From: an uncultured archaeon
GTDB lineage: Archaea; Asgardarchaeota; Lokiarchaeia; Sigyniarchaeales; Promethearchaeaceae
Assembly: GCA_964426185.1 (NCBI GenBank)
Contig: CAYRPF010000018.1
Location: 1-5,035 of the forward strand
Direction: 5' to 3'
DNA: 5,035 bases
Numbering within the stretch: position 1 is the first letter of the stretch; the number at the start of each line of letters is the position of its first letter. Both the position numbers and the translations under genes were made by a program. This document shows, piece after piece, positions 560 to 5,035 of this stretch. The notes under the pieces were generated by a model. The model saw nothing but the letters and a program-made list of their open reading frames with translations, made no database searches and was not told the DNA's origin.

Positions 560-2416
560 ATGAAATACAAAAGAAATATTAAAATTTTACTTGTTGGGGT
601 TCTTTTCTGTATTCTTCTATCTTTCTCGAGCAATCTAAATATAGTTCGAGCAGAAACGACAGAAGAAGAATCTGTGATCTTTAATATGGGTGGTCAACAA
701 ATGAGCTCGTTTACCACTCTTGATCCTCTTACGTATATGTCCATGCCCGAGATGGATATCATCTTTAATGTTCTTGAAGGCTTAACGACTTGGGTAACAC
801 ATGCTGATGGGTCCACTTCTATTGATCCATGCCTCGCAACTTCATGGGAATTTGAAGATATTGTAACTTTAAATGTCCATCTAAGAGAAGGTGCTTCGTT
901 TACAGATGGAACGCCATGGAATGCAACAACTTGTGAATGGAACTGGGATCGGTTAGCCAATTTGTATGCATGGTCTGGATTCGCTGGAGTTTTATCTCTG
1001 CCTGCTGATCCATTCCGAGATGTCTCTGGCGTCGATTTAAGTTGGGCTCCTGGAGGGGGTTATATTTATCCAATTAATCACACAGAAATTACAGGTGAAT
1101 ACGATATCACTTTTCACTTGAATGTACCTTATGATTTGATGAATATTATTGGGCCACACTATCGAATGATTTCCCCAACAACCTTTGCTGACTATCTATG
1201 TCAATACATGCCCGCCACATGGTTAGGAAACGAGCTTTCTGAAGTTTTAGACCTTGGGTTAGTTGGGACTGGTGCTTACTACTTAGATGAAATCAATTTT
1301 AATGAAGAAACTACGACTCTTCTGAAAAACCCTGATTGGTGGGGTCCAGAAGCTACTATTGATGTTTTGAATTACCGATATTATGCCAGTGGTGAGGATA
1401 CCATGACTTTGGCACTAGTCTCTGGTGAGCTTGACGCAGCGACCTATATTAATAAAGATATTATCGAGGGAAAGTCCAATATCGTATATTTGGGTGACCC
1501 ACAAGTTGGTGTCGGCCAAATGATTTGTATGTTACCTGAAAAAGTAAATATATCGGTTCGGGAAGCTTTAAATTATGCCTTTAATGACCAATATTTCCTT
1601 GATGAAGTGTTAGGTGGAGAAGGTGTCTTGGCTCCAGGTGCTATATTCCTTGAACAAACTTATTCAGATGATTCAGTACATCCACCAAGATTTAATTTAA
1701 CCCGTGCCAGAGAAGTTTTGATTGATTCTGGAATCGCTCCAGCAGGTGCTTCAGAGTGGACAAATGACGATTGGTTAGACGTGGCTGATGGAGATGGCTC
1801 TGTGGGTCCCCTCGGTAACTATACATTAGGATACATGGACAATTATGGAATGCCTGATTGGGCCGCATCTATGCAATCCGCTGCCCGTACAGTTGGTATT
1901 AACATTAGCTTGGTTATTGAGTCTGAAGCGACCTATTTCAACACAATCCTTAACCGTACAGAAGTGGGTAAGAAATATGATATGTTTTGCGGTATGATGG
2001 GAATGAGTTCAGCTGTTGAAATGACATTATTAATGATGTATTCTTCATCCGCTTTTTACGGTTTATCCATGCCATTGGGAGGAGTACCTGAAGTAGATGA
2101 AGCGATTTGGAATTTCATGAAAGCTTCCCCCGAGGACACTGAAACTCGCCAGACATACGCAAACCAAGTAGCAGATCGTATTAACAATGAGCTTTTCTAT
2201 TTTGCATGGATACCAGTGGGAAACTTCCCATGTGCTTACTCTAATGAATGGACTAACATCAGTTCCTTAATTGATACACGACCATGGCAATGGGTTCCAG
2301 TGACAGAAAATGGTAATGATGAAGAGAAAGTATCAGTGCCTGGATTCTCTTTAATATTCTTAGGATTCGCTTCAGCTGTTGGTGTAATTGCAATTATCAA
2401 GAAAAAAAGAGAATAA
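560..2416 (+). CDS. ABC transporter substrate-binding protein, family 5 (oligopeptide/dipeptide/nickel, OppA/DppA-like), secreted and C-terminally membrane-anchored
   Basis: Family-5 SBP motifs: 'TLDP', 'NVLEGL', 'PCLATSWE', 'LREGASFTDGTPWNA', 'VGTGAY', 'KNPDWWG', 'ALVSGELD', 'VREALNYA', 'FNLTRAREVL'. ATG at 560 is preferred over the ORF-track TTG at 518 because it directly begins a Sec-type signal peptide (MKYKRNIK, hydrophobic core, VRA|E) and follows GGAAGTG. The substrate cannot be called from sequence. Confidence 0.9.
   Translation: MKYKRNIKILLVGVLFCILLSFSSNLNIVRAETTEEESVIFNMGGQQMSSFTTLDPLTYMSMPEMDIIFNVLEGLTTWVTHADGSTSIDPCLATSWEFEDIVTLNVHLREGASFTDGTPWNATTCEWNWDRLANLYAWSGFAGVLSLPADPFRDVSGVDLSWAPGGGYIYPINHTEITGEYDITFHLNVPYDLMNIIGPHYRMISPTTFADYLCQYMPATWLGNELSEVLDLGLVGTGAYYLDEINFNEETTTLLKNPDWWGPEATIDVLNYRYYASGEDTMTLALVSGELDAATYINKDIIEGKSNIVYLGDPQVGVGQMICMLPEKVNISVREALNYAFNDQYFLDEVLGGEGVLAPGAIFLEQTYSDDSVHPPRFNLTRAREVLIDSGIAPAGASEWTNDDWLDVADGDGSVGPLGNYTLGYMDNYGMPDWAASMQSAARTVGINISLVIESEATYFNTILNRTEVGKKYDMFCGMMGMSSAVEMTLLMMYSSSAFYGLSMPLGGVPEVDEAIWNFMKASPEDTETRQTYANQVADRINNELFYFAWIPVGNFPCAYSNEWTNISSLIDTRPWQWVPVTENGNDEEKVSVPGFSLIFLGFASAVGVIAIIKKKRE
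2336..2416 (+). other. PGF-CTERM-like (Loki-CTERM-like) archaeal C-terminal sorting signal
   Basis: The C-terminus VPGF-SLIFLGFASAVGVIAII-KKKRE has the tripartite layout of archaeosortase substrates (PGF motif, transmembrane helix, basic tail), preceded by an acidic linker (TENGNDEEK). Confidence 0.75.
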
Positions 2417-2424
2417 TCTCTTTT

Positions 2425-2449
2425 ATAGCGGGATAACCGCTATTTTTTT
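2425..2449 (+). terminator. Hairpin plus T-tract terminator of the SBP gene
   Basis: ATAGCGG-GATAA-CCGCTAT (7-bp stem, 2425-2443) runs into T7 (2443-2449), starting 9 nt after the stop codon. Confidence 0.7.
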
Positions 2450-2453
2450 ACAG

Positions 2454-2487
2454 ATAATTAAGGAGGATGTTTTACAAGACCCTCCTC
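2454..2487 (-). ncRNA. Second DVI-like hairpin, probably the displaced DVI and 3' end of the remnant intron
   Basis: GAGGAGGGUCUU-GUAA-AACAUCCUCCUU-[A]-AUUAU: a long stem with one C-C mismatch, a GNRA tetraloop, a candidate bulged A at 2459 and an AU end at 2454. Confidence 0.6.
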
Positions 2488-2489
2488 AA

Positions 2490-2518
2490 GAATCAAGGGG
2501 GACTACGCCCCCCTGCTC
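2490..2518 (-). ncRNA. Group II intron domain VI (intact intron) with bulged branch-point A at 2493
   Basis: GAG-CAGGGGGG-CGUAGU-CCCCCUUG-[A]-UUC, starting 4 nt after DV. Confidence 0.8.
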
Positions 2519-2522
2519 AGCA

Positions 2523-2556
2523 GAACCGACCGTACGACTTTCACCGTAGTCGGCTC
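2523..2556 (-). ncRNA. Group II intron domain V (intact intron)
   Basis: 34-nt GAGCCGAC-UACGGU-GAAA-GUCGUA-CG-GUCGGUUC with the AGC triad, a 2-nt bulge, a GAAA tetraloop and both stems fully paired (including G-U). Confidence 0.95.
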
Positions 2557-2670
2557 AGGCTCCAAGTACTCCACTTCATGTCGCCATGTCTCCTTTATTC
2601 CCAGTCTTTGATTGAAAATCCAAGGACTTCAAGTCACCAATTCATCCTTTATAGGAGATGTCGATCTTCT

Positions 2671-4203
2671 TTATTTAATAGATATATGTTTCCCTTTCTT
2701 CCGTTTTTCCTTACGTTTTGCCCAATAATCCTTCGCAGATGGATCAAAAGGACTTAAATGAATCCGTACTTTGGGGTATTTCCACCACTGACATGTAAGT
2801 GTCCAAGGTTCTAACAGATAAACACCTTCAAACGAAAATGCCCAATTATTGGTTCCATTTCTACCCCAGTATCGATTCTTAATCCATTTCCTTCCGCGGT
2901 CAGGATGACGTTTTCGAGCCCAATTCCATAGGATTTTAAAGATCCTGTATGAGAGATAACTAAAGCTATCATGTGCGTTAGACCATTTATAATAATTGCA
3001 AAATCCCCGTATTCTTATGTTCAGACCAATTATCATATCCTTTATATCTTTATTCCAACTGATTCCGACGAATTCCTTAAGATCCTTGAGGAATCGATCT
3101 ATCCGCTGTCTCTGTGGTTTAAAGATACTCTTCTTGATTGATCCGTCCTTTCGGTAGTACCTTTGGAAAGAAAATCCCAAAAAATCAAATCCTTCAGAAA
3201 TGTTTACAATCTTAGTTTTAAGGGAATTAAAACTAAGTCCTACCGATTGCAAATGCGATTTAATTTTTGGCATAACATATTCTATGATAATTTCCTTAGA
3301 GGGTGTTATTACTATAAAGTCATCAGCATATCTAAACACACCAATATCTTTATTCTGCTTTCTTCGATTGGATGGTGCAATGTACCTACCAGTTCTTGTG
3401 TTAATACCAAACATTCTTTCCATTCCATCTAGTGCGATATTAGCTAATAAAGGGCTTATTATTCCGCCTTGGGGTGTTCCTTTATTTGTACGTTCAAATC
3501 CAATTTGAGAAATTGCACCACTTTTTAGCCATGATCGTATAATACCGTGAAATGGGCTTGTTTTGATCTTTTCGAGTAAAGCATTATGGTTTATGTTATC
3601 GAAACATTTAGATATATCTGCATCCAAAATCCACCCTGGATGGATTCTACGTCCTTTTTGGGGGAGTAATGATGTGTAAATATGGTGTGCCGCGTCAAGT
3701 GCACTTTTCCCAGGTCGGAAACCAAAACTATGTGGTTCAAATTTTGCTTCCCACTCAGGGTTCATTGCCATATTGACTAAGGCTTGCATTACTCTGTCAA
3801 GAATTGTTGGGATACCTAGTTTCCTTTTATCACCATTGGACTTTGGGATCCACACAATCCGAACGGGTTTTGGAATGTACCCATTAAATTTTAAGTTTTC
3901 TACAAGTTGTATTTTCTTGTCGGCGGTTTTATATAATTTTCCATCAACTCCAGGAGTGTTCTTCCCATTATTAATTTCAGTAATTAATCTAACTGCCCAT
4001 AGTCTTGCAGAAAGTGATCGAGTCAGAAGCTTCTGGGTTTGTTTTACCTGTCTGAAATTTCCGACTTGAGTATCTCGGAAAATCCTCTGTTGGAGATTCT
4101 CTACACGATGTTTGATTATGTCCCAATTAATTTGGTCCCAATCTATATCCATCGGTTGGTTGATGCATACAAATGCTTGATTTGTCTCACGCCTTTCTTC
4201 CAT
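2671..4203 (-). CDS. ltrA: Group II intron-encoded reverse transcriptase/maturase, no HNH endonuclease domain
   Basis: RVT_N-type N-terminus (WDQINW..VENLQQRIF..QKLL..SLSARLWAVR), then GKNTPGVDG, IPKSNGDKRKLGIPTILDRVMQ, FEPHSFGFRPGKS, DADISKCFDNINH, GTPQGGIISPLLANIAL, catalytic YADD (3319-3330), GFDFLGF and domain X (LNIRIRGFCNYY). It ends shortly after SPFDP..DYW with no Cys-pair or HNH motifs. An alternative start is MDIDW at 4152. Confidence 0.95.
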   Translation of the reverse strand: MEERRETNQAFVCINQPMDIDWDQINWDIIKHRVENLQQRIFRDTQVGNFRQVKQTQKLLTRSLSARLWAVRLITEINNGKNTPGVDGKLYKTADKKIQLVENLKFNGYIPKPVRIVWIPKSNGDKRKLGIPTILDRVMQALVNMAMNPEWEAKFEPHSFGFRPGKSALDAAHHIYTSLLPQKGRRIHPGWILDADISKCFDNINHNALLEKIKTSPFHGIIRSWLKSGAISQIGFERTNKGTPQGGIISPLLANIALDGMERMFGINTRTGRYIAPSNRRKQNKDIGVFRYADDFIVITPSKEIIIEYVMPKIKSHLQSVGLSFNSLKTKIVNISEGFDFLGFSFQRYYRKDGSIKKSIFKPQRQRIDRFLKDLKEFVGISWNKDIKDMIIGLNIRIRGFCNYYKWSNAHDSFSYLSYRIFKILWNWARKRHPDRGRKWIKNRYWGRNGTNNWAFSFEGVYLLEPWTLTCQWWKYPKVRIHLSPFDPSAKDYWAKRKEKRKKGKHISIK

Positions 4204-4424
4204 TCAATCATCTCTATTACAGATTTATTTCCGTTGGAGTCACGGGTAGTCAGCTTCCTTTCGGAATGGTTATTAACCTATCCCTTCAATTACAGAGGGG
4301 CATTCACTTTCACCCGATCTCTATCTCCCTGCTTATTTACATGGAGATTTTTACGAAGTTCATATATACAGACAAGATACAACCTTTAGAGACTTGCTAT
4401 ACCCCGAGCATTTTTGATCAGATA

Positions 4425-4449
4425 GATATGTAAAAAAAGAATACATATC
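4425..4449 (-). ncRNA. Domain Id3 stem-loop carrying EBS1 (CUUUUU, 4439-4434)
   Basis: Perfect 8-bp stem GAUAUGUA/UACAUAUC with loop UUCUUUUUU. CUUUUU is exactly complementary to IBS1 AAAAAG (4739-4734), which abuts GUGCG and supports the 5' splice site. Confidence 0.85.
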
Positions 4450-4740
4450 CTAATGCCAGTGCCTTCTTTGGTCGTCACAGTGTATCAACTCCCTTTCACT
4501 GCGTAAGTTTAACGAGGCTTCAGTTACAAGTTCACCGAAGTTTCTCATGGGTTGTTTTGGCTAGCCCTATCTGCATGGGGAGTTAGCAGAATCGGTACAT
4601 TACCACTCATGCTTTGAAACCCCACTCTTTTGGATAGGAGTTCGAGTGATTGCCACGAATAGTCTGATTCTATTGCCAGTTTTTATATGTCATCTCTTTC
4701 TGGATTCTATATATACGCTTATCTTCGTCGCACCTTTTTG

Positions 4741-4774
4741 GAACCACGCGTGGGAGTTTCCCCGTACGTGGCTC
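4741..4774 (-). ncRNA. Second group II intron domain V (remnant intron)
   Basis: 34-nt GAGCCACG-UACGGG-GAAA-CUCCCA-CG-CGUGGUUC with the AGC triad, a fully paired 8-bp lower stem, a CG bulge and a GAAA loop. The upper stem has two mismatches. Confidence 0.88.
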
Positions 4775-4864
4775 GAGCCTTGAAAATCCCTCACGTCACC
4801 GTGTCCCTAGGCATTCATCCTCATGATGAACCCAGATTTAAAACTGTTACCAGTTTCTTATCGA

Positions 4865-4921
4865 TTAAGATCTTCCATGCTTATTTCGATTTAACCAATA
4901 ATCCCGAAGAATTGGGTCAAA
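4865..4921 (-). pseudogene. C-terminal fragment of a group II intron RT/maturase
   Basis: Translates as FDPILRDYWLNRNKHGRS*, against FDPSAKDYWAKRKEKRKK in the intact IEP (FDP, DYW and R identically spaced). Similarity stops upstream of FDP, and an in-frame TGA lies 12 codons upstream. Confidence 0.8.
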
Positions 4922-4988: not shown

Positions 4989-5035
4989 TTAGAAAATGGT
5001 GATGATAAGCCCTACTATGATAATTGAACCCCCAA
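4989..5035 (-). CDS. Possible 3' end of a membrane protein gene entering from the right edge (resembles the last helix of DMT/EamA transporters)
   Basis: One frame reads GGSIIIVGLIITIF*, which is hydrophobic with a GGxxIxxG pattern. Only 14 codons are visible, and another frame is also open here. Confidence 0.25.
   Translation of the reverse strand, partial: GGSIIIVGLIITIF

Follow-up and report, generated by a model that had tools for sequence, protein, structure and literature searches.

A group II intron nested in domain VI of a related intron remnant in a Lokiarchaeial genome

The first 5035 bases of contig C18 of a Lokiarchaeial genome (G000), referred to as the window, carry a complete group II intron of 2247 nt (the inner intron; positions 2487-4733, minus strand) and parts of a second one on either side of it (the outer intron). 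Judged by comparison with uninterrupted copies in other genomes, the inner intron is truly nested: its boundaries are clean, no target duplication is present, and domain V (DV) of the outer intron is split from its domain VI (DVI). It is very likely that the inner intron, which is intact and endonuclease-less, retrohomed into a copy of a related-family intron that is now, and perhaps was already then, a dead 3′ remnant.

Nesting and insertion site

With Rfam, two DVs were detected in the window, both on the minus strand and separated by about 2.2 kb. The genome of Candidatus Harpocratesius repetitus FW102 (G001; JAIZWK010000001.1), which belongs to the same genus as G000, holds two uninterrupted 3′ ends of the outer intron family (L054/L004 and L017), in which DV is followed by CAAAAAG and then at once by AGGGGGGUGU(U/C)GUAAAACAUCCUCCUUAUUUAAC. 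This Lokiarchaeon comes from hydrothermal vent rock, and group II introns are not discussed in the paper describing it (PMC8813620). BLAST matched window positions 4921-4734 to positions 4190-4379 of L054 and window positions 2487-2444 to positions 4379-4422, the boundary G being common to both matches. Because the match coordinates abut in L054, the window's two pieces of the outer element are contiguous in G001. Uninterrupted alleles of the host, which an earlier reading of the window made from its letters alone (the sequence-only reading) had proposed to look for, are therefore found in G001 with no gap.

When positions 4733-2487 were deleted in silico, the resulting junction CAAAAAG/AGGAGGG (the slash marking the join) aligned without gaps to CAAAAAGAGGGGGG of G001. 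The rejoined sequence was gapless against both L054 and L017, and it aligned with five further members of the family, from three other Lokiarchaeial genomes, with one 1-column indel in the DVI stem. Continuity of DV and DVI was judged by homology to these natural uninterrupted copies together with folds. The hairpin at 2486-2453 (minus strand), which includes the predicted 3′ end of the outer intron, is 84% identical to the L054 sequence directly following CAAAAAG; a 19-nt run (UGUAAAACAUCCUCCUUA) is identical between the outer DVI of the window, L054 and L017, and the DVI stem of this family shows compensatory changes among its members. By homology, this hairpin is the remainder of the outer DVI. 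The sequence-only reading had removed 4733-2488 to rejoin the two halves and had placed a DVI-like hairpin at 2487-2454; the continuous DV-DVI and the hairpin both stood up against the G001 copies, with the difference that the inner intron ends 1 nt further, at 2487, and the hairpin occupies 2486-2453.

The 3′ boundary of the inner intron was examined in seven relatives (one each in G007, G013 and G020, two copies in G022, and two in G019, one of which has no open reading frame (ORF)). All seven finish in ...GA(U/C)UC(U/A)UG (CUUG in six); past this conserved end, the flanks displayed for the inner relatives are mutually unrelated. The shared end followed by divergence indicates that the inner intron ends at 2487 and that the hairpin at 2486-2453 lies outside it. 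The relatives examined are without this hairpin, which disposes of a concern raised by the sequence-only reading, that other copies of the inner intron might carry it regardless of flank. Together with the gapless rejoined alignment, the conserved end defines an intron running from GUGCG (4733-4729), which fits the consensus GUGYG, to GAUUCUUG.

In the outer DVI, the insertion point follows the third nucleotide of the 5′ strand, between AAG and AGG and opposite the branch-point A. The inner DVI, in which a linker UGCU precedes GAG and, below the bulged A, GAG is paired with UUC, was used as a template. Read by analogy, the outer DVI has the linker CAAA, AAG-UUU pairs below the bulge and A-U above it. 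On this reading, the site is within the DVI helix and not in a single-stranded linker. The placement of the insertion at the DV-DVI junction in the sequence-only reading thus needs a small correction: the outer DV is split from its DVI as stated, at a position inside the helix and not in the linker.

Target recognition and recurrence of intron-in-intron insertion

The exon-binding site 1 (EBS1) of the inner intron, CUUUUU (4439-4434), is complementary at all six positions to AAAAAG (4739-4734), the intron-binding site 1 (IBS1). It is carried by a hairpin at 4424-4450 (minus strand), with stem GGAUAUGUA/UACAUAUCU and loop UUCUUUUUU, which was delimited by alignment with L026 and L041. In L026, a 66%-identical relative in G019, the homologous loop reads GUUUUCCCU and the intron's own 5′ exon reads GGGAAA; this covariation of loop and exon identifies EBS1. 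Another segment, GACCA (4473-4469), was considered as EBS2 and is an unlikely candidate, as it is conserved among relatives with different exons.

The hexamer AAAAAG occurs 8868 times in G000, GGTTnnAAAAAG 35 times and the 13-mer TGGTTCCAAAAAG twice. Among the 35 GGTTnnAAAAAG sites, the occupied one is the intron-borne one. The second TGGTTCCAAAAAG lies on the minus strand of contig C12 of G000 (13196 on the reverse complement); it is not intron-derived, its next base is G and not A, and it is unoccupied. Class IIC introns, which target terminators or attC sites, have a compact ribozyme and insert directly downstream of a stem-loop; their target offers only a short IBS1, IBS2 being absent. The outer DV hairpin does lie 7 nt upstream of the inner intron, but 530 nt precede the inner ORF and EBS1 is 6 bp long, and DV does not recur as a flanking hairpin in the 5′ flanks of two relatives inspected by eye.

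In the proposed mechanism, the excised inner RNA together with its reverse transcriptase (RT)/maturase would reverse-splice into the sense DNA strand of the outer intron between AAG and AGG. Pairing of EBS1 (CUUUUU) with AAAAAG would guide the insertion, a short EBS2 pairing with GGUU of the outer DV 3′ strand would probably contribute, and a replication-fork strand would prime cDNA synthesis, as in other introns lacking an endonuclease, which use replication-fork primers (PMC4424553). This retrohoming pathway is our inference, as are the views that the inner intron is active today and that the outer one is dead. Several points weigh against this account. The best EBS2 candidate, AACU (4509-4506), pairs with GGUU over only 4 bp, this pairing is 2 nt away from IBS1, and AACU lies within a variable internal loop. 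Only one copy of the inner intron, that of the window, was found in the G000 assembly. Furthermore, a scaffold gap of 100 N (C18:5036-5135) lies immediately upstream of the outer remnant, and the 5′ part of the outer intron could sit in unassembled sequence beyond 5036.

The same junction was found a second time. At 3.41 Mb in G001, nt 1-745 of the inner intron, 99% identical to the window, are inserted at the same outer junction, and the inner fragment then breaks abruptly into unrelated DNA. Only 26 nt of the outer intron precede it, namely the DV 3′ strand plus CAAAAAG (25 of the 26 identical to the window); upstream of these, a third intron type is represented by about 108 nt from its 3′ end (DV-DVI). 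This part of the locus (L055, G001:3408000-3420000; approximately 6709-5831, minus strand) is a fossil stack of three intron types, and L055 also has, on its plus strand (8408-9115), a separate intron without an ORF. The genes flanking the window have no counterpart at the 3.41-Mb locus, indicating that the two loci are non-syntenic and hence that the same junction is present in two genomic contexts. A third copy of the junction was not found across 400 genomes of the phylum.

With only 26 nt of the outer intron remaining in G001, one insertion that later moved looks the same as two separate insertions. The occurrences in G000 and G001 may accordingly be one insertion, later copied or transferred as a composite, the site being a single chance event and not a preferred one. 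Such a composite could have arisen by retrohoming of an outer intron with the inner one already inside, or by reverse splicing of the inner intron into outer RNA. We consider this rather unlikely. It is consistent with the near-identity of the 26 nt, with the other kinds of site occupied by inner relatives, and with the mobility of composite twintrons discussed for Thermosynechococcus elongatus (PMC2882425). It is countered by the single differing base, at which G001 has the family consensus (CUCGC) and the window the degenerate CUCCC, by the occupation of precisely the intron-borne one among the 35 GGTTnnAAAAAG sites, and by the lack of synteny between the two loci.

Intron-in-intron insertion was also observed at other sites. 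A complete twintron is present in another Lokiarchaeon (L056, G019:C58:9000-17000; 1886-6420), as established against an uninterrupted homologue (L037, G026:C28). Its inner intron (2095-4322) starts with AUGCG, ends in CUUG and encodes an intact intron-encoded protein (IEP) of 500 aa that is 62% identical to the inner IEP of the window; GGGAAA immediately precedes it, and the domain I into which it is precisely inserted belongs to an outer-family intron with an intact 499-aa IEP. In a further genome (L018, G002:C3:3222-6292; genome 3937-4013 onward), an intron of a third type, with the DVI end CCUACCCGAC, lies inside the RT ORF of an outer-family intron, a nest resembling the homing into intron ORFs known from Methanosarcina. 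A DV spacing of about 814 nt, as in G002:C3, was also seen in G002:C105. An ORF-less derivative of the inner family, made up of the 5′ 680 nt and the 3′ 200 nt, is present in L057 (G019:C36:2500-9500; approximately 1893-2830, minus strand), with outer-family segments upstream of it and 63-155 nt downstream; the arrangement may represent a further nest whose host is an outer intron lacking an ORF. The flanks of the other inner relatives did not look intron-like by eye, and no search of those flanks was made.

Taken together, these data show that intron-in-intron insertion is common in these Lokiarchaeia and that the sites differ. Deliberate targeting of intron catalytic cores is plausible. The sequence-only reading had gone further and described the inner intron as an intron parasite aimed at the catalytic core of related introns. 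The nest it built upon is genuine; for the targeting, the junction occurs only twice (G000 and G001), and the relative in G019 sits in domain I. Moreover, the outer "host ribozyme" is most likely a dead relic, so that nothing functional would be left to parasitise. An extended form of the targeting idea can be entertained tentatively. It holds that the natural homing site of the Harpocratesius inner lineage is the DV 3′ strand, J5/6 and DVI base of the other family (UGGUUCCAAAAAG/A, the slash marking the insertion point), that the intron is a parasite whose insertion into DVI, across from the branch-point A, disables the host ribozyme, and that Asgard archaea keep self-renewing intron-in-intron "nurseries". 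If true, it would offer a concrete model for the persistence and diversification of group II introns in the archaeal lineage nearest the eukaryotes.

Anatomy of the two introns

The inner intron encodes an IEP of 510 aa (2671-4203, minus strand) with RT and maturase regions (Pfam RVT_N, RVT_1 and GIIM), the YADD motif being encoded at 3330-3319. With 318.8 bits against the NCBIfam equivalog TIGR04416 (cut-off 300), the protein passes as a group II intron RT/maturase, and a Pfam search returned no HNH match and no endonuclease domain. The inner DV (34 nt; 2523-2556, minus strand) shows in its folds the AGC triad, a GAAA loop and an AC bulge; its match to Rfam RF00029 (Intron_gpII; 2558-2428) scored 43.4 bits, above the gathering score of 40. 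That alignment stretches DVI to 2428, pairing GGGGGGC with the hairpin at 2425-2443 described below, and was rejected as an artefact in which the model bridges two hairpins. The inner DVI and its 3′ tail UUG (2487-2518, minus strand) were delimited by a minimum free energy fold and a consensus fold of seven family members, in which the stem (2518-2490) shows compensatory changes. Position 2493 is the bulged branch-point A; its distance of 6 nt from the 3′ end is within the expected 6-8 nt, and the outer family has equal spacing (A-UUUAAC), as the sequence-only reading had noted. The terminal nucleotide is G, unlike the usual AY. The inner element therefore shows the DV core, 5′ end and DVI, domain IV RT/maturase and EBS1-IBS1 pairing of a group II intron. 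Its intactness and the 99% identical copy in a sister species suggest that it is active at present.

All inner-family members examined end in G and not in the usual AY, and at least two of them begin with AUGCG in place of the canonical GUGCG (L026/L056, position 2095; L027 in G022, position 1327). The inner and outer family IEPs are 46% identical, indicating that the two families are related. The nearest non-Asgard relatives of the inner IEP are cyanobacterial (35-47% identity), and no comparable nest adjoining a DV was found with these cyanobacterial relatives. A metagenome scan with the 5′ 18-mer of the inner intron gave 20 matches; of the 19 followed up (all but L088), 18 were chance matches in GC-rich DNA, and only the match in the source contig (L097) extends beyond the 18-mer.

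The outer intron is represented by less. The C-terminal remnant of its IEP (4865-4921, minus strand; 18 codons and a stop) translates as FDPILRDYWLNRNKHGRS; the inner IEP and the outer-type IEP in G019 have FDP..YW..R.K tails, to which it aligns. Similarity of the outer DNA to L054 (78% identity) starts exactly at 4921. The 3′ part of domain IV (DIVb; 4775-4864, minus strand), between the IEP stop and DV, is collinear with L054 (78%) and L017 (88%). The outer DV (34 nt; 4741-4774, minus strand) was delimited by RF00029 and by alignment to seven family members; its Rfam match (4776-4655) fell short of the gathering score of 40 with 26.7 bits (E 0.031) and had non-canonical pairs marked, whereas positions 4921-4734 matched G001 with an E-value of 7e-36, a strong homology despite the weak Rfam score. 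It keeps the AGC triad, GAAA loop and AC bulge. Two pairs of its upper helix, A10/C23 and C11/C22, are broken; all seven relatives keep G-C and C-G there. Next come the J5/6 linker CAAA and AAG, the first 3 nt of the DVI 5′ strand (4734-4740, minus strand); all eight outer-family members aligned have CAAAAAG or CUAAAAG directly after DV. Beyond the inner intron, the branch-A equivalent is at 2459, and the base of the outer DVI reads AAUUAUC where the family has AUUUAAC. The parts named by the sequence-only reading, namely the IEP remnant at 4921-4865, a first DV at 4774-4741, CAAAAAG (4740-4734) with GUGCG from 4733, and an intron with its own RT, second DV and second DVI, were all borne out by these translations, profile matches, homologies and folds.

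Within the window, the outer intron is short of a complete six-domain ribozyme and consists of the IEP tail, DIVb, DV and DVI only. Its state bears on a further explanation, that the locus is a functional twintron in which the outer intron is complete and its domains I-IV lie in the gap beyond 5035. G000 is a metagenome-assembled genome of 3.26 Mb in 155 contigs (92% complete), and runs of N are present in 62 of the 155. Both the contig and the scaffold are interrupted at 5035/5036: the source metagenome contig Ga0164318_10031864 (L097, 5063 nt) stops at the same base as the window, and because of the 100-N gap the window is linked to the next gene (567 aa; 5141-6844) by scaffolding only. In addition, G019:C58 holds a true twintron with both IEPs intact, and ORF-less derivatives of these families exist (G019:C36). 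Nevertheless, a functional twintron is improbable. The IEP similarity breaks off at FDP and stop codons precede the tail in its frame; the 114 nt between 4921 and the window end match no intron in the fetched loci and show no IEP similarity, and no Rfam model of domains I-IV matches anywhere in the window. Against seven relatives, the outer DV has its two broken pairs and the outer DVI a degenerate base. Since IEP similarity ends at FDP, nothing intron-like lies upstream, DV pairs are broken and the DVI base is degenerate, the outer intron is probably a dead 3′ relic. Some of the outer-family members aligned belong to full-length introns with a 499-aa IEP, and L017 in G001 is a 5′-truncated fragment of about 130 nt. 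Such 5′-truncated fragments are the expected product of abortive reverse transcription.

Finally, the idea that the inner intron extends at its 3′ end through 2486-2453 as a "domain VII", with splicing downstream of it, deserves next to no credence and was rejected: a stable hairpin does directly follow DVI, and the Bacillus cereus intron B.c.I4 is described as a precedent (PMC1865049), but the hairpin is in none of the inner relatives whose 3′ flank was examined, which end in CUUG or CAUG, and it is homologous to the outer DVI, being contiguous with the outer DV in uninterrupted copies.

Downstream of the outer DVI, a G+C-rich hairpin, AUAGCGG UUAU CCCGCUAU, with A and U runs on its flanks was observed at 2425-2443, between this domain and the stop codon (2414-2416) of a plus-strand solute-binding protein gene. 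It is probably a bidirectional terminator.

Significance and comparison with known systems

Spliceosomal introns are presumed to descend from group II introns. The latter have been reported in Asgard archaea (PMC8919778, citing Vosseberg & Snel 2017; bioRxiv 10.1101/2024.12.10.627823), where they are relevant to the question of whether proliferating introns were already present in the first eukaryote's archaeal host (bioRxiv 10.1101/2024.12.10.627823); no published description of nesting of Asgard group II introns was found in the literature searched. The present results show that at least one Lokiarchaeial genus has an apparently intact mobile intron that two species have recently shared (99% identity), and that in the same genus several intron families insert into one another, one of these insertions cutting a catalytic-core helix. 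The locus also supplies a defined sequence that could serve as the target in a mobility assay. What is gained is scope and detail and not a new principle.

The closest precedent is Methanosarcina acetivorans, in which, as a review summarises it, nested group II introns home into related introns (Dai & Zimmerly 2003, via PMC4424553). On that account the two systems share an archaeal host, site-specific homing into related group II introns, nests with no coding exons around them and with remnants and deletions alongside, and a standing supply of homing sites in the form of other introns. Precise insertion into a related intron, recurring at different loci, was likewise found here. Homing in Methanosarcina is, by the title of the original paper, into intron ORFs (domain IV), whereas the window site is in the DVI 5′ strand, downstream of the ORF and not within it; the host here is an Asgard archaeon (Lokiarchaeia), and the window nest is two deep only.

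Among bacteria, the twintrons of T. elongatus also have an inner intron at a conserved site of another family, with recognition mostly by RNA base-pairing, and in both systems independent insertions can be told apart by the same reasoning, from identical inner introns in diverged outer copies (PMC2882425). In contrast to the window, its inner introns are ORF-less and occupy the stretch of domain IV that separates the outer ORF's first two ATGs, where they are structurally harmless (PMC2882425); the inner intron of the window encodes an IEP itself and interrupts a helix of the catalytic core. The twintron of Trichodesmium erythraeum is likewise prokaryotic, with an IEP-encoding inner intron in the structured domain I, and so matches G019:C58 (PMC4649490). 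It differs in that it interrupts a gene and its sequential splicing has been shown experimentally (PMC4649490), whereas the window nest is known from sequence and its site is in DVI.

The euglenoid plastid twintrons (Copertino & Hallick 1991/1993, as cited in PMC4424553; Eutreptiella, PMC5572947) are comparable in position. Their inner introns are located at or close to DV, DVI or the 3′ splice site and can lie in DV or a few nt from the outer 3′ splice site, so that the outer intron can fold only once the inner one is removed (PMC4424553; PMC5572947). Those are organellar, degenerate mini-introns in protein-coding genes, unlike the window, where a full retroelement sits in an outer relic in archaeal intergenic DNA. 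Intron homing into introns is thus an established principle in Methanosarcina, cyanobacteria and organelles, and the window is a clean new example of it.

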